Origin: Minisyncoccota bacterium
Lineage (GTDB): Bacteria; Patescibacteriota; Minisyncoccia; Phycocordibacterales; UBA9973
Assembly: GCA_942491275.1 (NCBI GenBank)
Contig: CALNZI010000006.1
Span: 73,899-137,898, forward strand
DNA: 64,000 nt
Reading direction: 5' to 3'
The notes below the pieces were generated by a model that saw nothing but the letters and a program-made list of their open reading frames with translations, did no database searches and was not told the origin of the DNA. The first letter of the stretch is position 1. Each line of letters begins with the position of its first letter. Positions 4,783 to 62,270 of the stretch are shown here, in pieces. The position numbers were made by a program, and so were the translations under genes.

Positions 4783-4895
4783 CTGTTTATTTTATCATAA
4801 TTTAAATCTAATTAAGAGATAATGTCCTAAACCCTACCTTATTTTCTACAATCGAGTTCCAATAAATTACCCGTAGGGTCACCATGTCGTACTAG

Positions 4896-4987
4896 CACGA
4901 GAAGGGTCAAATTATTTAAATAAAAGTATATAAAATAACCTTACTGGTCAATAAATCAATTGGTTCTATCTCGAGAAGTCTCACAAA
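4896..4987. repeat. copy 2 of the 82-bp perfect direct repeat
   Basis: Identical to 4036-4117 (offset 860 nt). Both copies sit just 3' of a minus-strand gene. Confidence 0.95.
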
Positions 4988-5032
4988 AAAACCTCTCCAA
5001 AAAGAAGAGGCTTTAAATGTTTACTACAAAAG

Positions 5033-5949: not shown

Positions 5950-6267
5950 TTAATTAACACTACTTACTATTTTCAATTTTCTTTCTTTACGGGGAACATT
6001 TATTCCTCTTAATAAATTTAATTTACTTGGGATAATTTTAGACTCCCAATCAACTGAGTTATCAATACCAATAAGATGATATTTTTTTCTCCCACAATTA
6101 CACCTACCAGCAATAATTTTACCATCTCTGTGATAAATTTTATTTATTGCATGTTTTGTTTCTTCTGGAATTTGTTTATTCAATTCTTGAAATAAATCCC
6201 TATTTATTTCAATTTGGTCCAAAAAATTATTTGTTGGATTCTCGTCAAAGTCAATTAAAAAACACAT
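5950..6267 (-). CDS. hypothetical protein (105 aa)
   Basis: Track ORF with SD-like aaggagg upstream (reverse complement of 6273-6279). Contains CNCG..H; no family recognised. Confidence 0.45.
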   Translation of the reverse strand: MCFLIDFDENPTNNFLDQIEINRDLFQELNKQIPEETKHAINKIYHRDGKIIAGRCNCGRKKYHLIGIDNSVDWESKIIPSKLNLLRGINVPRKERKLKIVSSVN

Positions 6268-6594
6268 AAAAGTTCCTCCTTGTTTAAGTTAAAAATTGGT
6301 TTAATTATATTTATTTATTGTTTTTAAAGAACAAAAAAAATTCAGCTTCTTTTGAAAGCTGGTTTTTAGTAATAAATAAATTTTTTAGGGGAGAATTTTT
6401 ATTAACAAAAATCAGCTTTCAAAATGAAAGTCTTAATAAAATAAATGTGTCCCCAAGTGGAGTTATTATTTTGATTTTTGATAACATCTAACATAATATA
6501 TATATATATATTTACATATTGAAAAAATAAAGTCAAATATAAATTCCCCCAAATTATTAAATTAGGGGGAATTTTTTAAAACCTGATTAGGTAA

Positions 6595-27343: not shown

Positions 27344-28597
27344 ATGAGAATATTAGCCATAGAAACATCCTGTGACGAAACAGCTCTCGCAATTATAGAA
27401 ACAAAGAAAATTGGGTCCGAAGTGAATTTTAAAATTCTAGGAAATGACCTTTCTTCTCAAATTGATATTCATACACAATATGGGGGTGTTTTCCCGATGA
27501 TGGCTAAAAGAGAGCATGGAAAAAATATTATACATATTCTTGAAAAAGTACTACGAGAAGCAAAAATGTATAAATTACAAAAAACTTCTATCTATGATAA
27601 AAAAATGGAAAATAAAATTAGTAAAATTATCAATAGAGAAAATGAAATAGAAGATAGATGGATAAAAATAATGCCATTTATAAAAAAACCAAAAATAGAT
27701 GCCATTGCCGTAACAACAGGGCCTGGGCTTGAACCAGCTCTTTGGGTCGGAATTAGTTTTGCTAAAGCATTGAGTACATATTGGGATGTTCCCATCATTC
27801 CAGTTAATCATATGGAAGGTCATATTTTTTCTATCTTTCCTAAAAAAGGAAAAACTTTCATCATTGATAAAAAAGAAAAAATGTTTCCAATGTTATCTCT
27901 CCTTGTTTCTGGAGGACATACTGAATTAATTTTAATTAAAGACTGGCAGAAATATAAAAAAATAGGACAAACTCGTGATGATGCTGCTGGAGAAGCCTTT
28001 GACAAAGTAGCCCGGATGTTAGGACTTCCTTATCCTGGCGGACCAGAAATTTCAAGACTAGCAAAGGAACGCAGGGATATTCTTTTAGGAAGCCTCACGC
28101 AGGCTGACGAGCCGAGTGCGAGCAAAAAATCTAGCAAGATTTTATTGTGTGCTGACGAAAAGAATATCCCTAGTGACGGTATAAACTTCCCTCGTCCAAT
28201 GATTCATTCAAAAAATTATGATTTTTCTTTTTCAGGATTAAAAACAGCAGTTCTTTATTATCTAAGAGATAATAAAATTTCAGAAAAAGATAAACCAAAA
28301 ATAGCAAAAGAATTTGAGGATGCAGTTATAGAAACATTAGTTCACAAAACAATAAAAGCAATTAAGGAATATAAAATTAAAACACTAATTGTTGGTGGCG
28401 GAGTTTCAGCAAATAATTATCTAAGAGAAATGATGGAAGAAAAAAATAAAAAAGAAAAATTAAAAACAAAAATACATTTCCCATCAAAAAAATTAAGTAC
28501 AGATAATGCTCTGATGATTGCCGTCGCAGGATATTTCCAATACAAAAAAGGAAAAAAATATGGCAAACTAAAAGCCAACGGAAATTTGTCATTATAA
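27344..28597 (+). CDS. tsaD: tRNA N6-adenosine threonylcarbamoyltransferase (Kae1/TsaD family) with two insertions
   Basis: 417 aa. MRILAIETSCDET, HMEGH, VSGGHTE, GGVSAN. Confidence 0.9.
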   Translation: MRILAIETSCDETALAIIETKKIGSEVNFKILGNDLSSQIDIHTQYGGVFPMMAKREHGKNIIHILEKVLREAKMYKLQKTSIYDKKMENKISKIINRENEIEDRWIKIMPFIKKPKIDAIAVTTGPGLEPALWVGISFAKALSTYWDVPIIPVNHMEGHIFSIFPKKGKTFIIDKKEKMFPMLSLLVSGGHTELILIKDWQKYKKIGQTRDDAAGEAFDKVARMLGLPYPGGPEISRLAKERRDILLGSLTQADEPSASKKSSKILLCADEKNIPSDGINFPRPMIHSKNYDFSFSGLKTAVLYYLRDNKISEKDKPKIAKEFEDAVIETLVHKTIKAIKEYKIKTLIVGGGVSANNYLREMMEEKNKKEKLKTKIHFPSKKLSTDNALMIAVAGYFQYKKGKKYGKLKANGNLSL

Positions 28598-44039: not shown

Positions 44040-44600
44040 TTATTTTCTTAATATTGTTTTTTTATTATTTTGGAAAGCTATAATAGTTGAGGGTTTACTT
44101 TTTCTTAATCCCCTATTTAAATAAAAATCAATTTTTGTACCAAAATATTTTTTTGCCTGAGAAATTATTTCTGCAGGTTTTTCCCCTTCAGGATTAGCGC
44201 TAGGAGCAACCAAAGGACCTGTTTTTTTTATTAAATTTAACAAATTTTTATTTTTAGAAGTAATCATCCTAAAAGCTATAGAATTCGCTCCTCGATGGAG
44301 ATATGAAAATTTTTGATTAGAACAAGACAAAATAAGGCTTGTTTTATAAGGCCAAATTAGATTTTTATCAATTTTAATTTTAAAAATTTCTAAATCTTTT
44401 AATGAAGAAATCAAAACAATTAAAGGTTTTTTTAAATTTCTTTTTTTTATTTTATAAATTTTCTCAACTGCTTTTTTAGATAAAGCACTTCCAACAAGCC
44501 CATATATGGTATCCGTCGGTAAAACACCTATCCCATCTTTTTTTAATAACTCTTCTGCTTTAATCCAATCTTTTTTCATATTGTTTATATTAAAATTCAC
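44040..44600 (-). CDS. tsaC: L-threonylcarbamoyladenylate synthase (YrdC/TsaC family)
   Basis: 186 aa. LPTDTIYGL and SANPEG motifs. Confidence 0.8.
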   Translation of the reverse strand: MNFNINNMKKDWIKAEELLKKDGIGVLPTDTIYGLVGSALSKKAVEKIYKIKKRNLKKPLIVLISSLKDLEIFKIKIDKNLIWPYKTSLILSCSNQKFSYLHRGANSIAFRMITSKNKNLLNLIKKTGPLVAPSANPEGEKPAEIISQAKKYFGTKIDFYLNRGLRKSKPSTIIAFQNNKKTILRK

Positions 44601-56987: not shown

Positions 56988-57911
56988 ATGAAAAAGAAAG
57001 ACCCACAAACAACAGATAAGATTATTGTTATCCTTGGTCAAACTTCCACAGGAAAGAGTGATTTTGCTGTTGAAATAGCCAAGAAAGTAAATGGGGAGAT
57101 TATTTCCGCTGATTCAAGACAAGTTTACAAAGGAATGAATCTTGGAACAGGTAAAATTACAAAAAAAGAAATGCGCAAGATGAAACATCATTTACTTGAT
57201 GTTGCTTCTCCCAAGAGAGTATTCTCTGTTAGTGACTTTGTTAAACTTGGTAACAAAAAAATAAAAGACATTCTAAAACGGGGGAAAGTTCCAATCATTT
57301 GCGGTGGAACTGGATTTTATATTGACAGCTTAATAAATGGTTCAACTTTCCCCGAAGTACCCCCAAATAAAAAACTTCGATCTCAACTTAAAAAGAAAAC
57401 TGTTACAGAACTTTTTAAGATATTAAAAAAGCTAGATAAAAATAGATCTCGAACAATTGACCCACAAAATAAAGTCCGTCTAATTCGAGCTATCGAAATA
57501 GCCCAAACCCTCGGCAAAACTCCAAATCTTGCCAAGGACCGTCCTTGGCAAGATTTAGCCTTAAAAATTGGGCTTGTTTTACCTCCTGAAGTTTTGAAGA
57601 AAAAAATTAATACTCGATTACTTTCTCGCATTAAAAAAGGAATGTTAAAAGAGATTCAAAAACTTCACGAAAGTAGTTTATCTTGGAAAAGAATGCATGA
57701 ACTAGGACTTGAATATCGATACGGAGCTCTTTATCTTCAAAATAAAATTAGTAAGGAGGAAATGATAGAAAAAATAAATACTAAAACTTGGCATTACGCC
57801 AAACGACAAAAAACTTGGTTCAAACGAGACCAAAATACAATTTGGATTGATCCTCGTAAAAAAAGTGAGATAAATAAAGTTCAGAAAGAGATAAAGAGGT
57901 TTTTAAACTAA
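56988..57911 (+). CDS. miaA: tRNA dimethylallyltransferase
   Basis: 307 aa. P-loop GQTSTGKSDFAVEIA, SADSRQVYKGMNLGT, CGGTGFY. Confidence 0.9.
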   Translation: MKKKDPQTTDKIIVILGQTSTGKSDFAVEIAKKVNGEIISADSRQVYKGMNLGTGKITKKEMRKMKHHLLDVASPKRVFSVSDFVKLGNKKIKDILKRGKVPIICGGTGFYIDSLINGSTFPEVPPNKKLRSQLKKKTVTELFKILKKLDKNRSRTIDPQNKVRLIRAIEIAQTLGKTPNLAKDRPWQDLALKIGLVLPPEVLKKKINTRLLSRIKKGMLKEIQKLHESSLSWKRMHELGLEYRYGALYLQNKISKEEMIEKINTKTWHYAKRQKTWFKRDQNTIWIDPRKKSEINKVQKEIKRFLN

Positions 57912-58042
57912 CGGGCGATGGAGGACCGTGAGTGCACTTATCGCCTATTACATAGGCAGGTACTTTTCCGCCGAGCTGTCGCTCGTATGGAAAAATCTTT
58001 CGATTCCTCCACGTAAGCAAAGCAGTTTGCTTTATATCGCCC
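57912..58042 (-). ncRNA. candidate structured RNA with a tRNA-Trp-like acceptor/T-stem frame (unclassified)
   Basis: 66/131 G+C. Six nested helices found by hand. The terminal 7-bp stem and 3' strand are identical to tRNA-Trp. One G-U pair favours the minus strand. Strand and function are uncertain. Confidence 0.45.
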
Positions 58043-58070
58043 AACAAAAAAAGCTTTCGCTTTTTTTCTT

Positions 58071-58161
58071 TGCGGGCTGTAAAAATCTGGAGTGGAACAC
58101 TATTGAAAATATGATTCTAAAATGGAATGGTGTATTTGAGGGGTTTGAGCTAATGAGTTGA
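58071..58161. repeat. copy A of a 91-bp direct repeat (81/91 identical to 59865-59955), with a degenerate ~80-nt extension
   Basis: Base-by-base alignment at offset 1794 with no indels in the core. Confidence 0.9.
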
Positions 58162-58256
58162 AGTGTTAAATGAGGTTTATGTTGTAATGCTATTTGTATT
58201 TAAAAGATTGATTAAATTACCTATGAATTTATAGAACCTTAAGTTTTACTTTGTAA

Positions 58257-58285
58257 ATAAAAAAAACCGCACTTGAAGTGCGGTT
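58257..58285 (-). terminator. intrinsic terminator of the 449-aa gene
   Basis: aaccgcac/gtgcggtt stem (58265-58285), followed on the minus strand by TTTTTTTTATTT. Confidence 0.75.
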
Positions 58286-58316
58286 AGTTTTTTAATTAAC
58301 ACAATTTTTTATCTTT

Positions 58317-59666
58317 CTACACCAATGACATCATCATTGTATAGTCACGAGCTAATTGAGTAGAACGAATTAGTCGTTTAGTAGTATCAGCTTCAATTTT
58401 ATAAAACTGAACCATAGCTGTTTGATGAGTTGGATTACCACCTTTCCATTCATTTTCTGGATCAGTAACAAAATAATAAGCATTAGCTTCCGGTGGTGCA
58501 ATAGCCTGAATTTCATTAATATCAAACTTAAAGAAACCATGATAACCACCAACGGTGGTACGAAATAAAATAGGATCACCCATTTTATCAATTTTGGTTA
58601 TTTTATACTCCGGTTCCCATGTATCTAATCTTGCTCCAACTTTTGGATACTGAGTAAACCATTGCTCATCAATTTGTACTAAACCTCTTAACCCTAAAGT
58701 AATTTGTCCATTAACAGGTTGCAACAATTTATTCCAGTGTTTTTTTAACAACTGACAAGCATCAGGGCCTGATTGAATGTTTGATATTATCTGCTCTCCA
58801 GATTTAATACCAATTAGACGAACACCATTATTCCATTCATGAGAGTCTACATCTAATACTAAGCTTTCATTTCCACCACTATGATGTAAATTAACTAATC
58901 GTCCAGTAGAAATCAAATGAGCCAAAGCATGACCTGTTTCAATTTTTGTATACCGGTAATTGCAATTCGAAGCATCACCCACTGTAATAATAAATGGATC
59001 TGAACTTTCGGCACCTGCTTCTCTGTGTTTTTTACGACGACCATCAAGGAACTCAATATGAACATCTTCCGGAATATTGTATTTATTCTCCGGATTAATT
59101 CCAGCTTGTTCTCGATGCCAAGCACGAGCGGCATCAACATGAACTTGAACATATTGTTCTGTTTGTGGACCAAAACGCGCCTTAAGTAATGGATCAACAA
59201 TGGCTTGTGAAGCTCTTAGAGTTTGGATAAAAGAATACTGGTATAGAGAATTATATTTATTGAAATCAATAACTTCAATTTCTCCATATTTACCACTTTC
59301 CAAATCCCATAATTCTTGCTGGGTAATACGACCACCATTCCTAGAACGAGTTTTGTCTTTGTATTCCCAACTATAAGCTTTCTGTATGCCTTGTAAATCA
59401 TACATAGGGCCAATTCCGTGAGCGACAATAATTATTTTATTGCCTTGCTTGGTGTAACCTACATACTCAGCAGTTAGCGAAGTGTAGTAAGTTTCCCATG
59501 GTTCCTCTCCAGGTCTAGTTTTTACTCTGGATGAAATAACATCTGGCATGGTTGCAATCCGGCCATTTTTGCCTGCAAATTGCATAGCTTGTTTCCAAGC
59601 TGCTGGTAACCCATCTTGATGGTAAAAAGCCATCGCTCCAGCATTTTTTTTTGTTTGTGTTGTCAT
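58317..59666 (-). CDS. orphan hypothetical protein (449 aa), soluble, His-rich patches
   Basis: Track ORF. Strong SD AAGGAGGAAAAG 4 nt before the ATG (reverse complement of 59671-59682), plus its own promoter-like element and terminator. No family recognised. Confidence 0.7.
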   Translation of the reverse strand: MTTQTKKNAGAMAFYHQDGLPAAWKQAMQFAGKNGRIATMPDVISSRVKTRPGEEPWETYYTSLTAEYVGYTKQGNKIIIVAHGIGPMYDLQGIQKAYSWEYKDKTRSRNGGRITQQELWDLESGKYGEIEVIDFNKYNSLYQYSFIQTLRASQAIVDPLLKARFGPQTEQYVQVHVDAARAWHREQAGINPENKYNIPEDVHIEFLDGRRKKHREAGAESSDPFIITVGDASNCNYRYTKIETGHALAHLISTGRLVNLHHSGGNESLVLDVDSHEWNNGVRLIGIKSGEQIISNIQSGPDACQLLKKHWNKLLQPVNGQITLGLRGLVQIDEQWFTQYPKVGARLDTWEPEYKITKIDKMGDPILFRTTVGGYHGFFKFDINEIQAIAPPEANAYYFVTDPENEWKGGNPTHQTAMVQFYKIEADTTKRLIRSTQLARDYTMMMSLV

Positions 59667-59740
59667 AGAACTTTTCCTCCTTTTCCCCGATTAGGGGTTT
59701 TATGGTTTATAACCTAACTTCATGTTAGATCTTTACTCAA

Positions 59741-59769
59741 AGATTACAACAAAATACTAAGGATGTCAA
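59741..59769 (-). promoter_or_regulatory. sigma70-like promoter candidate TTGACA-17-TAATCT for the 449-aa gene
   Basis: Minus strand: TTGACA (59769-59764), a 17-nt spacer, then TAATCT (59746-59741). The ~70-nt leader has two small hairpins. Confidence 0.4.
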
Positions 59770-59864
59770 TTTAATAAAAACTTAAATTAAGACACTACAA
59801 GAAAGTGTTCCATTACTCCACCAAGCAACAAAAAATCACCATTACAAAATATGGCCTATTTAAA

Positions 59865-59955
59865 ATGCGGACTGTAAAATTCTAGAATGGAACACTATAG
59901 AGAGTATGATTCTAAAATGGAATGGTGTATTTGAAGGGTTTGAGCTAATGAATTA
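59865..59955. repeat. copy B of the 91-bp direct repeat
   Basis: See copy A. Degenerate similarity continues to about 60040. Confidence 0.9.
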
Positions 59956-60103
59956 ATTAAAAGATTGAGCTTTGTTTTGTAATGTTTATTTAAATAAAGA
60001 AAGTTTTGTTTATTACCTATTGAATAATAGAACTATAATAAAGAAGTATAGAGATAAAAAAAGCTACACACAATAAGTATGCAGCTTTTATTTAAATTTA
60101 ACT

Positions 60104-60505
60104 TCATTTATTAAATCCAACTTTCCATTTTTTCTTATGAGAAACAAAAAGATTATATGAATACCCTATACTAAATCCAATAAAGAGTAAAATATGAATA
60201 CTCATATTGTGATCTTCTTTGTTGATTCCTTCAGAGAAGAAAATTTTAATAGCTAAAAGTTCTAAAAGATGCAATAAGCTAATAAGGATAACAACTCCTA
60301 ATGCTACGAATATCCAATAATCTACTTTTGTCGTTGATAATCTTTGTGCGATTCTTTCAGTGAATCTACACAGAACACCAACTAGATAGTAAAAAAGAAT
60401 TATTTCAGAGTCAACGAGGCTAATTCCAATTAAATGGTAAGGGACAATAATAATAACTGTCGTTATTATTATTCCAAAAATGAATAGTAATAGATTTGTT
60501 TTCAT
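60104..60505 (-). CDS. hypothetical polytopic membrane protein (133 aa)
   Basis: Track ORF with about 4 hydrophobic helices. Does not look like SecE. Confidence 0.5.
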   Translation of the reverse strand: MKTNLLLFIFGIIITTVIIIVPYHLIGISLVDSEIILFYYLVGVLCRFTERIAQRLSTTKVDYWIFVALGVVILISLLHLLELLAIKIFFSEGINKEDHNMSIHILLFIGFSIGYSYNLFVSHKKKWKVGFNK

Positions 60506-60663
60506 GTTTTCAAAGATTAAGTTGTTTTTATAAAATTTTACTAAGTTCTCTTAATTTCCATAAAGAAACTAGGAGAACCTAATAAAAAATAACAATTTAA
60601 TCTAAATATCAAAGAACCTATATACTACAAACAATAGCATATAAATAGGCATATGTCAAGATG

Positions 60664-60734
60664 CGGGCGATGGAGGAATCGAACCCCCGACATCGGTTTT
60701 GGAGACCGAAGTTATACCATTTAACTAATCGCCC
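60664..60734 (-). tRNA. tRNA-Trp (CCA)
   Basis: Manual fold: GGGCGAU/AUCGCCC acceptor stem, anticodon arm UCGGU-CUCCAAA-ACCGA, T arm GGGGG-UUCGAUU-CCUCC, discriminator G. No encoded CCA. Confidence 0.9.
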
Positions 60735-60792
60735 AATTACAACAAAATCCGCCTATGCGGATTATTGTACCAAACAAAAAGATAAAAAGGAA

Positions 60793-60951
60793 TTATTTCT
60801 TAGCCTCTTTGTGCTTGGTATTAGTCTTACACCATTTGCAAAATTTCTTAAGCTCGACTTTTTTAGTGACGAGTTTTTTGTTTTTACTTGACCAATAGTT
60901 GATCTTTTTACAATCACCACAGGCTAATTTGAAAAGTCTATCTTGTGACAT
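60793..60951 (-). CDS. rpmG: 50S ribosomal protein L33
   Basis: Manual translation: MSQDRLFKLACGDCKKINYWSSKNKKLVTKKVELKKFCKWCKTNTKHKEAKK* (52 aa, CxxC..CxxC L33 pattern). Absent from the ORF track, probably below its length cutoff; the plus-strand track ORF 60661-60891 here is spurious. Confidence 0.9.
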   Translation of the reverse strand: MSQDRLFKLACGDCKKINYWSSKNKKLVTKKVELKKFCKWCKTNTKHKEAKK

Positions 60952-60997
60952 AGTGGGTATAGAATACTATAAAACATTCTAAAAAGCAACATTTCCT

Positions 60998-62131
60998 TTA
61001 ACTTACAATCCTAGGTAATAATGGGTTAATTTGAGTAGTTACTTCGTAATTAATGGAATTCATTTTTTTAGCCAACTGCTCAGAAGTAATTCTATTTTTA
61101 ACTTGCTCTCCCAAAAGAACCACTTCATCCTCCACTTGAACGTCTTTAATACTAGAAACATCAACAACAATCATATTCATGGCTACTCTTCCTAAAATTT
61201 TAGCTTTCTTCCCTTTAATTAAAACTTCCCCATTATTAGAAAGCGATCGGGTTAGACCATCGGCATAACCCTGAGGAATAACTGCAATTTTAGTTTTCTT
61301 TTTAGTTATGTGAGTTAATCCATATCCAATGGGATGATTGGATGGAAGTATCTTAATTTGAGCAATATGAGAAATCCAACGCAAAGATGGCTTTAGAGTA
61401 ATTTCTTTTTTATTTAAATATTCCAAATGATCACTTGGCCACATACCATAGAGTCCAATGCCTAATCGAACAATACTATGGAGGTTATTCCCCTTTTCAT
61501 ATATTAATATTCCCGAAGTGGCTGAAATGTGTGTTTTTGTTTTAGGAAAACCATTTTCTCTAAAAATTTCTACACAACCATGATAAGTATCAATTTGTTT
61601 TTGAGCATGAGTAAAATTCATAGTATCTTCAATATTCGAAAAATGAGAATAAACTCCATCCAGAATAATATTTTTCATTTTCTTTATTTCTGGAATAACC
61701 TTCTCTACCTGGTTGGGCATGACCCCTTCTCTCCCCAGATATGAATCTATAGCTAAATGAACTTTAACTTTTCTTTTCAATTTTCCTGCAATTTTATTAA
61801 TTCTTAAAAGATGAACTAAATCAAAAGCAGAAATAATTGCTTTACTTTTTATTGCTTTTCTTATCCCCTCCTCATTTAAATAACCAAAAACTAAAATAGG
61901 TTTTTTTGTAAATTTTTGAATACTTTCTAATTCTTCAATACTATCAACTTGAAAATAATCAACGTGGGAATTTAGAATTTTAACAACTTCTTTATCTCCA
62001 TGACCATAGGCGTTAGATTTCACAACTCCCGCAATTTGTGATTTCTTTCCCAATAATCTTCGAAATTGCTTAATATTATGTATTAAGTTCTTTTTTGAAA
62101 TTTCTATGTATGAAAGTAATAAGTTCCTCAT
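60998..62131 (-). CDS. alr: alanine racemase
   Basis: 377 aa. PLP-lysine motif VVKSNAYGHG and a C-terminal beta domain with the Y of YGL. Confidence 0.9.
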   Translation of the reverse strand: MRNLLLSYIEISKKNLIHNIKQFRRLLGKKSQIAGVVKSNAYGHGDKEVVKILNSHVDYFQVDSIEELESIQKFTKKPILVFGYLNEEGIRKAIKSKAIISAFDLVHLLRINKIAGKLKRKVKVHLAIDSYLGREGVMPNQVEKVIPEIKKMKNIILDGVYSHFSNIEDTMNFTHAQKQIDTYHGCVEIFRENGFPKTKTHISATSGILIYEKGNNLHSIVRLGIGLYGMWPSDHLEYLNKKEITLKPSLRWISHIAQIKILPSNHPIGYGLTHITKKKTKIAVIPQGYADGLTRSLSNNGEVLIKGKKAKILGRVAMNMIVVDVSSIKDVQVEDEVVLLGEQVKNRITSEQLAKKMNSINYEVTTQINPLLPRIVS

Positions 62132-62184
62132 ATATTCTATATTCTAGCATTTTAATCATATTTTGGTATACTAACCATATCCTT

Positions 62185-62266
62185 GCCGGAGTGGCGGAAT
62201 TGGTAGACGCGCACGACTCAAAATCGTGTCTCGCAAGGGGTGAGAGTTCGATTCTCTCCTCCGGCA
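62185..62266 (+). tRNA. tRNA-Leu (CAA)
   Basis: Manual fold: GCCGGAG/CUCCGGC acceptor stem, anticodon arm CACGA-CUCAAAA-UCGUG, long variable arm, T arm GAGAG-UUCGAUU-CUCUC. Confidence 0.9.
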
Positions 62267-62270
62267 CAAT

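Follow-up and report, generated by a model that had tools for sequence, protein, structure and literature searches.

A folded 131-nt segment behind a tRNA-Trp gene is one copy of a family of small, probably mobile structured elements in Paceibacteria

We analyzed a 64-kb stretch of DNA from a Minisyncoccota bacterium, called the window here at its full length, and in it a GC-rich segment of 131 nucleotides (nt) at positions 57912-58042 that stands at the far end of an array headed by a transfer RNA gene, tRNA-Trp. The array runs along the minus strand for ~2.8 kb in the order tRNA-Trp, open reading frame (ORF) ORF133, a type C repeat, ORF449, a terminator, a second type C repeat, the AT-rich hairpin H0 and the segment itself, a type A element, and it abuts the convergent gene miaA (ORF 56988-57911; Pfam IPPT, E 2e-65). 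The segment begins on the base directly after the miaA stop codon. A sequence-only reading of this DNA had proposed that the segment forms nested helices on the minus strand and shares its ends with the tRNA-Trp gene, and had offered two interpretations: a tRNA-derived structured RNA with a mimic of an acceptor stem, or att-site fragments pairing by chance. Its coordinates for every helix and every identity to tRNA-Trp were found to be correct. The same was true of the base composition, G+C amounting to 66/131 (50%) in the segment and, when recomputed, to 29% in each 200-nt flank, compared with 32% in the whole window. The parts of the element and its immediate partners are as follows.

57912-58042, minus strand: type A structured element (closing helix and P1, with P3/P3a, P4 and a mini-hairpin making up the core), recognized by its fold and by homologues with compensatory changes
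58042-58036 with 57919-57913, minus strand: terminal helix GGGCGAU/AUCGCCC, followed by an unpaired G at 57912
57912-57925, minus strand: direct copy of the tRNA-Trp 3' end (UCCUCC AUCGCCC G), equal to 60664-60677; 3' strand of the closing helix
58036-58042, minus strand: 5' 'acceptor' strand GGGCGAU, complementary to the 3' copy and to a degenerate tail copy upstream of H0
58015-58032, minus strand: hairpin P1, AAGCAAA-CUGC-UUUGCUU; helix 1 of alignment A5
57997-58010, minus strand: 5' arm GGAGGAAUCGAAAG, matching in reverse complement the T-loop of the tRNA and the 3' strand of its T stem
58010-58005 with 57925-57920, minus strand: 6-bp helix GGAGGA/UCCUCC, second part of the closing helix
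57994-57989 with 57969-57964, minus strand: helix P3, UUUUCC/GGAAAA, enclosing P3a; helix 2 of A5
57984-57973, minus strand: inner hairpin P3a, GAGC-GACA-GCUC, inside P3
57957-57943, minus strand: hairpin P4, GCCUAU-GUA-AUAGGC, enclosed by GUAC/GUGC; helix 3 of A5
57928-57937, minus strand: mini-hairpin GUG-CACU-CAC, directly before the 3' tail copy
58046-58070, either strand: AT-rich hairpin H0, AAAAAAAGC-UUUC-GCUUUUUUU, terminator-like on both strands and separating the element from the preceding unit
60664-60734, minus strand: intact tRNA-Trp(CCA), head of the array (ARAGORN; Rfam tRNA, 67.5 bits), its final 14 nt serving as the proximal repeat copy

Folded as RNA, the minus strand of the segment reached -52.0 kcal/mol (z -5.1), a value equalled by 0/200 shuffles, and the plus strand reached -48.7 kcal/mol (z -4.6). 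With DNA parameters the minus-strand fold had a z of -4.6 and also formed the mini-hairpin at 57928-57937. The fold exceeds chance on both strands and with both parameter sets, and its minimum-free-energy structure reproduced the nested helices that had been read from the sequence.

The likeness to tRNA-Trp is confined to particular strands. The 14-nt 3' end and the 7-nt 5' end of the segment are those of the tRNA-Trp gene at 60664-60734 (minus strand), as claimed earlier, and the opposite strand does carry the match to the T-loop and T-stem, TTCGATTCCTCCA at 57999-58011 of the plus strand. In all 64 kb there are exactly two occurrences of the 13-mer TCCTCCATCGCCC, each on the minus strand, with 0.37 matches expected even when two mismatches are allowed. 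Together the 7-bp and 6-bp helices form a closing helix of 13 bp which, with its discriminator-like G, matches the 3' strand of tRNA-Trp, and this closing helix copies the T stem and the acceptor stem of that tRNA. The element looks like a tRNA because its arm and tail close the core on this helix. Otherwise the segment has no T-loop, D arm or anticodon arm. Its arm GGAGGAAUCGAA reads as the T-loop and 3' T-stem strand of tRNA-Trp (UUCGAUUCCUCC) in reverse complement, the tRNA's own 5' T-stem strand being GGGGG; since the arm complements UUCGAUUCCUCC and is unlike GGGGG, it is not a leftover of a tRNA 5' half.

The scan with ARAGORN and Rfam, tRNA and transfer-messenger RNA (tmRNA) models included, that the sequence-only reading had suggested as a check left the segment unmatched. 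ARAGORN found five tRNAs in the window and none at 57912-58042. Rfam 15 gave no match at gathering score to the segment, and in a sensitive scan of 57700-58350 the body stayed uncovered even at E<=10; a lone sau-13 match overlapping the 3' end of the element (E 0.74, far under the gathering score) is at chance level. The segment is not a tRNA, a tmRNA or a remodelled tRNA. What stood of the tRNA-derived interpretation is a real, selected minus-strand fold whose closing helix mimics the T and acceptor stems; the derivation of its body from a tRNA fell, given the lack of an ARAGORN or Rfam match, an arm taken from the complement of the T-loop, and cores of the same kind that lie behind other tRNAs or behind none.

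By sequence comparison the segment is one type A copy of a previously undescribed family of small, non-coding and strongly folded elements behind tRNA genes of Paceibacteria; literature searches turned up no description of such elements. We took 80 loci around miaA homologues from species-representative genomes (loci and contigs bear L numbers below), in which an nhmmer search with the 131 nt found related segments in L002, L003, L004, L007 and L023. The metagenome contigs L135 and L155 provided further copies; they were the only genuine ones among 120 loci kept from an unspecific 15-mer scan of metagenome contigs. Copies in L008, L271-L273, L276, L277 and L279 were added by a covariance model. 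Thus the homologues in related genomes, with compensatory changes, that the earlier reading had proposed to look for were found. Model R1 scored 95.5 bits for segment 57912-58042, its sole significant match in the window. As for the host, MiaA of the window is ~70% identical to that of several metagenome-assembled genomes of Paceibacteria/Nomurabacteria, the 4.9-kb Logan contig L251 is 99.94% identical to the window, and exact look-ups of the window's MiaA and L33 gave no match.

One layout recurs on a single strand of these loci: tRNA gene, AT-rich hairpin, 5' arm, GC-rich core and direct copy of the tRNA 3' end. The tRNA is tRNA-Trp, tRNA-Leu(CAA) or, for type B, tRNA-Tyr, and all of the ~27 tRNA-linked copies are co-oriented with it. 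A hairpin like H0, of differing sequence, precedes the element in nearly all relatives, the exceptions being the tRNA-Leu copies of L023 and L155. The full type A 5' arm complements the T-loop, the 3' T-stem strand and the acceptor 3' strand. Nearly all tRNA-linked relatives carry the duplicated tail, which is truncated or degenerate in some; its start lies either within the T-loop or at the T stem's 3' strand, and in relatives it usually extends 2-5 nt past the discriminator, while in the window it stops at the discriminator. The direct repeats measure 14 nt in the window (60664-60677 and 57912-57925) and up to ~23 nt in relatives, where they start with GATT, AAGT or TCC and stand ~100-190 nt apart for these cores.

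The cores fall into classes. Type A (P1, P3/P3a, P4) is present in the window and in L135, L277, L023, L155, L002, L004, L008 and L271, with a variant A' in L003 and L004. Type B, which has a small GNCG-loop hairpin and a long GGGUCG...UGACC hairpin and is without the 5' acceptor strand, occurs in L005, L007, L017, L025, L032, L048, L135 and L277. Type C was found in L004 as well as in the window, and type D in L048. Of types A and B the window has a single copy each. Rfam gave nothing for the homologous types A and B in L135, and only tRNAs reached gathering score in ten related loci; at E<=10 no group I or group II intron and no hammerhead, hepatitis delta virus (HDV)-like, twister, pistol or hatchet ribozyme was found over types A and B. 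Type B does contain CUGACGAG, and a hammerhead ribozyme was considered and rejected, as GAAA does not follow stem II and no Rfam ribozyme matched. Group I introns are much larger than these elements, and in size they do not fit. Those reported in tRNA genes of Patescibacteria lie at anticodon position 35/36 (PMC13011429), a position that does not fit either.

The helices of both main classes covary. The copies compared, 15 of type A and 18 of type B, come from independent assemblies. When the 15 type A copies were aligned to R1, 94.0% of pair cells were standard, compared to 70.1% in shuffled alignments (0/500 reached the observed value) and 36-47% in slid controls, in which partners were moved by 1-3 columns. 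Double-sided changes affected 23/28 pairs, a positive outcome for the covariation check proposed with the sequence-only reading; by helix of A5 they were found in 7/8 pairs of helix 1 (P1, 97% of cells paired), 11/13 of helix 2 (P3/P3a) and 5/7 of helix 3 (P4). The GUA loop of P4 and its CUG and GAU flanks are invariant in the type A alignment, and the mini-hairpin, GUG/CAC in the window and GCG/CGC in L135, L004 and L007, shows a compensatory change. For the 18 type B copies 97.4% of cells were paired versus 71.6% after shuffling, and 20/22 pairs had changed on both sides. Alignments made with MAFFT and RNAalifold, and not fitted to the models, contained compensated pairs in 14/29 (type A) and 14/22 (type B) cases.

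Covariation also bears on the strand. G-U and U-G cells, which make up ~10% of pairs, outnumbered A-C and C-A cells by 42:2 in type A, by 23:2 in type B and by ~15:1 overall. This excess indicates that folding takes place on the tRNA-sense strand, in the window the minus strand, and so backs the strand chosen in the sequence-only reading. The structure is kept between hosts with MiaA only ~70% identical. These comparisons indicate that the fold is under selection on the tRNA-sense strand.

The 5' arm follows the tail of the adjoining tRNA. Arms behind tRNA-Trp read GGAGGAAUCGAA and are nearly invariant in type A, and the arm is AAUCGGA where the T-loop is TCCGATT (L005, L271). GAGGGA accompanies a T-stem CCCUC in L023 and GGGCGGU accompanies ACCGCCC in L277; behind tRNA-Leu, L008 has GAGAGAC with GUCUCUC and L007 has GGAGGAGAGACUUGAA; in L025 the arm GAAGGAAUCGA goes with UCGAUUCCUUC and the tail CCTTC. 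In L017 the arm AUUAGGGAA pairs with the element's own mutated tail UUCCCUAAU and not with the UUCCCUCAU of the tRNA. Cognate arm/flank duplexes came to -16.9 and non-cognate ones to -11.5 kcal/mol, a gap that is moderate because the T arms of tRNA-Trp and tRNA-Leu are alike, and we relied instead on the individual compensatory cases. A separate observation concerns the tRNA-Trp genes of L005 (6089-6159) and L271 (5945-6016), in which the T-loop TCCGATT puts a C at position 55, where U (pseudouridine) is almost universal in tRNAs; the adjacent arm, AATCGGA, has the matching G.

The outer, 'acceptor' part of the arm is the far half of a palindrome that passes through the AT-rich hairpin into an upstream tail copy. 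In L002, L004, L008, L135 and L277 the arm lies in such a long, sometimes perfect palindrome, which measures 30 bp (perfect) in L002 and 27 bp in L004, and in L008 and the distal L277 unit the arm fits the upstream tail copy better than its own tail. Judged from these alignments, the arm could pair with its own tail or with the upstream copy. The palindrome includes the genomic trailer and must therefore have been copied from DNA or a precursor rather than from mature tRNA. A retroviral-type primer-binding site was rejected for the same inclusion of the trailer and for the absence of a complement of CCA from the arm.

The elements vary between close relatives. Among 27 distinct loci with tRNA-Trp, 12 have an element and 15 have none; L001, for instance, has only a terminator between tRNA-Trp and rpmG. 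Where elements are present they may form arrays, as in L135 (tRNA-Trp-B-A), L277 (tRNA-Trp-A-B-A, the distal tail being the most diverged) and L004 (at least three units), and L002 contains at 6045-6430 a tandem duplication, ~97% identical with a period of 196 nt, of a composite unit in which one frame encloses a type A core and, after it, a type B core. L271 and L274 encode identical MiaA (P0124) and yet differ by a rearrangement at the level of strains: L271 has miaA, tRNA-Trp and a type A element facing convergent rpmG, while in L274 the tRNA gene after the tRNA-Trp promoter region that follows miaA has given way to ~2 kb that contain four small ORFs, none of a known family, together with a different type A element, which lies on the opposite strand. 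Furthermore, the block from tRNA-Trp to the element stands in either orientation relative to miaA, depending on the species, and the genes between miaA and tRNA-Trp vary: the window has ORF449 and ORF133, L265 has a histidine phosphatase, and L277 has Vut_1 and NUDIX. On this evidence from gene order the tRNA-Trp locus is a variable hot spot at which elements turn over. Around miaA we also observed tRNA genes for UNN codons, presumptive MiaA substrates: tRNA-Trp(CCA), tRNA-Leu(CAA) and, in relatives, tRNA-Tyr(GTA) (window 56988-62267; L008, L009, L013, L025 and others).

Type B cores also lie away from tRNA genes. Model R2 located cores without a tRNA at 11816-11916 of L155 and upstream of miaA in L005 and L265. 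The latter two, at 4876-4965 (plus strand) in L005 and 4905-4992 (minus strand) in L265, are a type B variant that occupies the same intergenic spot just upstream of miaA in opposite orientations, with the long closing stem conserved and compensatory changes in the small hairpin. In the window the type B core at 28096-28155 (plus strand; R2 34 bits, E 2.5e-7) lies within tsaD (27344-28597), as part of the following insertion.

28073-28171, plus strand: type B insertion in tsaD, ~99 nt, in frame, closed by a perfect 14-bp helix of 28073-28086 with 28158-28171

This insertion is residues 246-281 (~33 residues) of the protein, which are missing from solved TsaD structures; among TsaD homologues of 386-465 residues it is present in some close relatives and missing in others. 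At a single point the filled allele of L281 is 33 codons longer than the empty allele of L282, and no target sequence is duplicated there. In the four filled lineages the left arm complements each lineage's own right coding flank, with G-U pairs in the sense of the messenger RNA (mRNA); the sequences are AAAAGAAUAUCCCU in the window, GGAAUAACAUU in L281, GGAAAGAAUAUGAC in L284 and GGAAAUAAUAUAU in L285. Compensatory changes in the small hairpin change the encoded residues (ADE, ANG, AVE), and the constraint is therefore on a nucleic-acid fold and not on the peptide. In-frame insertion into a coding gene was seen for type B only, not for type A. TsaD itself has a second insertion of ~40 residues relative to the solved structures, at residues 76-115 (~27569-27688, plus strand), which P0333, P0337, P0345, P0353 and P0357 lack, and other homologues carry different inserts in the 246-281 loop, among them a recurring 'PLLxEEGVGGGD' that resembles a translated repeat (P0324, P0345). 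The window also encodes, besides tsaD, a Sua5/TsaC-family gene (44040-44600).

We give somewhat better than an even chance to the reading that these elements are mobile structured insertions, similar to Rickettsia palindromic elements (RPEs) and MITEs (miniature transposable elements with inverted repeats), that probably act as RNA and are mobilized in trans. A fold at the RNA level is suggested by the many G-U pairs and by the branching of the cores, whose unpaired bases are conserved. The selected fold would be that of a sense-strand RNA, either a read-through transcript of the tRNA or, for tsaD, the mRNA. The elements would spread as selfish insertions through an enzyme encoded elsewhere, as RPEs or MITEs would, with tRNA tails as preferred landing sites; insertion at a tRNA gene would duplicate the stretch from the T-loop/T-stem to the 3' end and leave the tRNA intact, and the enzymes that process tRNAs may be able to cut the element from its precursor through the closing helix, which resembles that of a tRNA.

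Several points weigh against this reading. A scan of 26 ORFs of the window (ORF449, ORF133 and 24 others) found no domain of a transposase, an integrase (Phage_integrase) or other recombinase, or a reverse transcriptase, and none like TnpB; nor did any appear in annotated related loci, judged by precomputed Pfam annotation of L252-L257 and L265-L280 that covers the ORFs of these loci incompletely. The mobilizing activity is hypothetical because no such gene was found nearby. No episomal or viral copy was seen, and six element-specific pattern scans of viral contigs gave chance matches only. There is only one type A copy in 64 kb, and type A independent of a tRNA amounts to one weak match (L135 1585-1672, 26.7 bits). 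A terminator-like hairpin stands between each tRNA and its element, and no minus-strand promoter or terminator frames the element of the window. Structure is kept in orthologous copies across long divergence, more than would be required of an element that is purely selfish. Finally, the larger covariation alignments were fitted to the models, and sampling through miaA may itself have produced the preference for tRNA-Trp, tRNA-Leu and tRNA-Tyr.

Several known kinds of mobile DNA and guide RNA were also considered and rejected. A phage or plasmid attP received only chance matches in the viral-contig pattern scans. For a guide RNA of the TnpB/IscB/Cas12 type, a scaffold followed by a 3' guide, no nuclease gene was found, and the 'guide' is paired inside the element. 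An element derived from IS200/IS605 would not fit, as neither an OrfB/TnpB nor a Y1 transposase domain was found, ORF449 is predicted to have a lectin-like fold, and no fixed target motif is evident. Target duplication of the casposon kind was set aside with no Cas1/PolB found and no terminal inverted repeats at the unit ends.

A more specific reading, which we regard as rather unlikely, is that these are protein-less homing elements of ~100 nt in which the 5' arm serves as a base-pairing guide to the host sequence 3' of the insertion point (a tRNA tail or, in tsaD, a particular run of codons) and a trans-acting enzyme inserts the core. If this were true, the arm/flank covariation, the filled and empty alleles and the retention of structure would reflect continuing homing within populations, and the elements would be a new class of nucleic-acid-guided mobile element. 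In a weaker variant the shared core may be a recognition motif that joins tRNA-Trp, tRNA-Leu, tRNA-Tyr, miaA and tsaD in an RNA-level regulon.

Alternatively, the segment could be the gene of a small tRNA-like RNA of the host. Such an RNA would share a transcript with tRNA-Trp, from which RNase P, RNase Z and the CCA-adding enzyme would free it through its acceptor/T-stem mimic, and its three-way-junction core would serve the cell, for example as a decoy or partner of tRNA-binding enzymes such as MiaA or TsaD. We hold this to be improbable, to about the same degree as guided homing. The strong covariation with its conserved junction and loop nucleotides, the G-U asymmetry pointing to the tRNA-sense strand, the common orientation of every tRNA-linked copy with its tRNA, and the retention of structure at ~70% MiaA identity would all suit such an RNA, as would the 13-bp closing helix with a following discriminator-like G equal to that of tRNA-Trp and the presence of related cores in or beside genes with roles in tRNA biology, namely those for tRNA-Trp, tRNA-Leu and tRNA-Tyr and also miaA and tsaD. 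However, about half of the related genomes have no element at tRNA-Trp, copy number and order vary even where MiaA is identical, and type B is without the 5' acceptor strand; terminator-like hairpins separate tRNA and element, the window element has no minus-strand promoter or terminator of its own, and the link to tRNAs may stem from the sampling of miaA loci only.

Distinctly less probable is a folded single-stranded DNA recombination site of the attC or CTX type, with the tRNA tail in the role of attI and a tyrosine recombinase encoded elsewhere moving the cassettes. Each unit would have an inverse core (the 5' arm) and a core (the tail copy), which within one DNA strand would fold to imitate the duplex target, much like the forked hairpin of CTX. 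The topology is that of a cassette array, with the target core followed by cargo or a hairpin, then the inverse core, a structured centre and a core again, in which the ends are conserved and the centres come in the classes A, A', B, C and D; the fold is strand-specific and is significant with DNA parameters too, the long perfect palindromes at unit junctions (L002, 30 bp; L004, 27 bp) point to a process at the DNA level, and the window array has two ORF-bearing units. Yet no IntI-like or other tyrosine recombinase was found nearby, rpmG or miaA being what flanks the tRNA, and the sites have no GTTRRRY/RYYYAAC consensus, their ends being tRNA-derived (CGGGCGAT...ATCGCCCG) and their centre a three-way junction. 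Known attC sites are single imperfect hairpins, whereas the cores here are multi-branched with conserved unpaired nucleotides and ~10% G-U pairs, as is typical of RNA. Furthermore, the tsaD copy has no duplicated core, and units of ~100-190 nt would give very small circles.

A plain attL/attR scar of a decayed integrative island, its pairing and GC richness without meaning, is very unlikely and is largely refuted by covariation. The repeat does run from the T-loop/T stem to the tRNA 3' end, the general pattern described for tyrosine-integrase islands (Islander), 2.7 kb and two non-core ORFs lie between the copies, and the locus is variable. Against this, the interior is conserved and covaries across many genomes, the divergence of homologous copies excludes recent identical transfers, the same cores recur with ~100-190 nt between repeats, compensatory changes keep the 5' arms matched to the tail, related cores are also present at sites that have no tRNA, and no integrase or remnant of one was found. 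From the second interpretation of the sequence-only reading we therefore retain the att-like direct duplication of the tail and the variable hot spot and discard the accidental pairing, because arms and helices covary; no integrase was found near the element. Its statement that the segment might be merely such a scar is contradicted by the covarying interior. Least credible of all is a plus-strand structure in the 3' untranslated region or terminator of miaA, for which the element adjoins the miaA stop, the hairpin 58046-58070 and a T-run follow on the plus strand, the plus-strand fold is significant (z -4.6) and the type B element of L005 abuts miaA likewise, but the 42:2 ratio of G-U to A-C cells places the selected fold on the minus strand, the elements of L002, L007, L135 and L271 lie beyond tRNA-Trp and away from the miaA stop, and many relatives have no element after miaA.

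Between the tRNA-Trp gene and the type A element the array of the window contains the following further parts.

60104-60505, minus strand: ORF133, second cargo gene, a predicted membrane protein judging by its hydrophobic sequence
59866-60033, minus strand: type C copy 1, ending in ACAGTCCGCA
58317-59666, minus strand: ORF449, cargo gene with a predicted C-type-lectin-like fold and no Pfam family
58071-58237, minus strand: type C copy 2, ending in a degenerate tRNA-Trp tail, ACAGCCCGCA

The type C repeats are AT-rich direct repeats of ~170 nt, 80% identical, that flank ORF449 and both carry a degenerate tRNA-Trp tail; their homologue in L004 (3851-4031) ends in CCTCATCGCCCG. ORF449 has more than 300 homologues in Patescibacteria, one of them at 77% identity in an unrelated locus. 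The best match to its predicted structure (predicted local distance difference test, pLDDT, 90) was AvpA (5ioo_A, E 5e-9), a variable protein of C-type-lectin fold that belongs to a diversity-generating retroelement from Nanoarchaeota. A diversity-generating retroelement was nevertheless rejected, as the window has no template/variable repeat and no reverse transcriptase was seen. After ORF449, at 58265-58285, we observed a strong bidirectional intrinsic-terminator hairpin, AACCGCACTT-GAA-GTGCGGTT; in L252, an unrelated locus, the homologue of ORF449 has a closely similar one after it, and the hairpin therefore travels with the gene.

Patescibacteria have tiny genomes with few recognized repeats or mobile elements. 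In them, types A and B are two non-coding families outside Rfam that are backed by covariation and behave as insertions. The elements appear to remodel the tails of tRNA genes, to mark a hot spot for accessory genes and inversions, and to sit in an essential tRNA-modification gene. An arm that is always complementary to the adjoining host sequence, together with a tail duplication that spares the tRNA, is not explained by known schemes of transposition or integration, and may offer an entry point to the movement of DNA or RNA in these uncultivated bacteria. Annotators of genomes from this group should take a GC-rich 'tRNA-like' segment that follows a tRNA gene neither for a pseudo-tRNA nor for a simple att scar.

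Each of the known systems that the elements resemble differs from them in important respects. Islands integrated by tyrosine integrases at tRNA 3' ends, and their cis-mobilizable remnants, likewise leave an intact tRNA, a distant direct copy of its 3' part, tandem arrays and variable cargo; in contrast to such islands, no integrase was found near the elements, most units are only ~100-190 nt long, the interior has a covarying fold and the unit itself includes the tail in inverted form. Integron attC sites and the attP of phage CTX, a phage that integrates using the Xer recombinases of its host, share with the elements an inverse-core/core repeat around a centre of conserved structure, a strand-specific fold, arrays beside a fixed target and some ORFs. 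Here, however, the target is a tRNA tail and not attI or dif, there is no R/L box consensus, the cores are branched and rich in G-U, and the tsaD copy has no duplicated core.

Among RNAs, mascRNA of MALAT1, YrlA and the tRNA domain of tmRNA have the same stack of acceptor and T stem with a discriminator-like base and the same position downstream of a co-oriented gene, and the element could in principle be recognized by RNase P, RNase Z and the CCA-adding enzyme as they are. It differs in that Rfam gave no match at E<=10, in that its closing helix copies the neighbouring tRNA exactly, and in that no Ro or RtcB gene lies nearby. Mobile introns, through the exon-binding and intron-binding sites (EBS-IBS) of group II and the P1/P10 of group I, offer a parallel for a 5' segment that pairs and covaries with flanking host sequence, but the elements are far smaller (90-130 nt), pair with the downstream flank only and match no Rfam intron, and the tsaD copy reads as an open in-frame insertion with no sign of splicing.

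The closest likeness under the reading we favour is to RPEs and to MITEs such as ERIC (enterobacterial repetitive intergenic consensus) and Correia, families that we compared by their general description. Like them, the elements are non-coding folded units of ~100-150 nt, apparently scattered, that are present or absent between relatives and encode no protein, and like RPEs they occupy intergenic sites and can be inserted in frame into a coding gene, here type B in tsaD. Unlike them, they leave no short target-site duplication, but a duplication of 14-23 nt of the tail at tRNAs and none in tsaD. Their cores are multi-branched with class-specific covarying helices, where these families have a simple hairpin of terminal inverted repeats, and their arms are not constant terminal repeats but are specific to each site, complementing the host sequence downstream.

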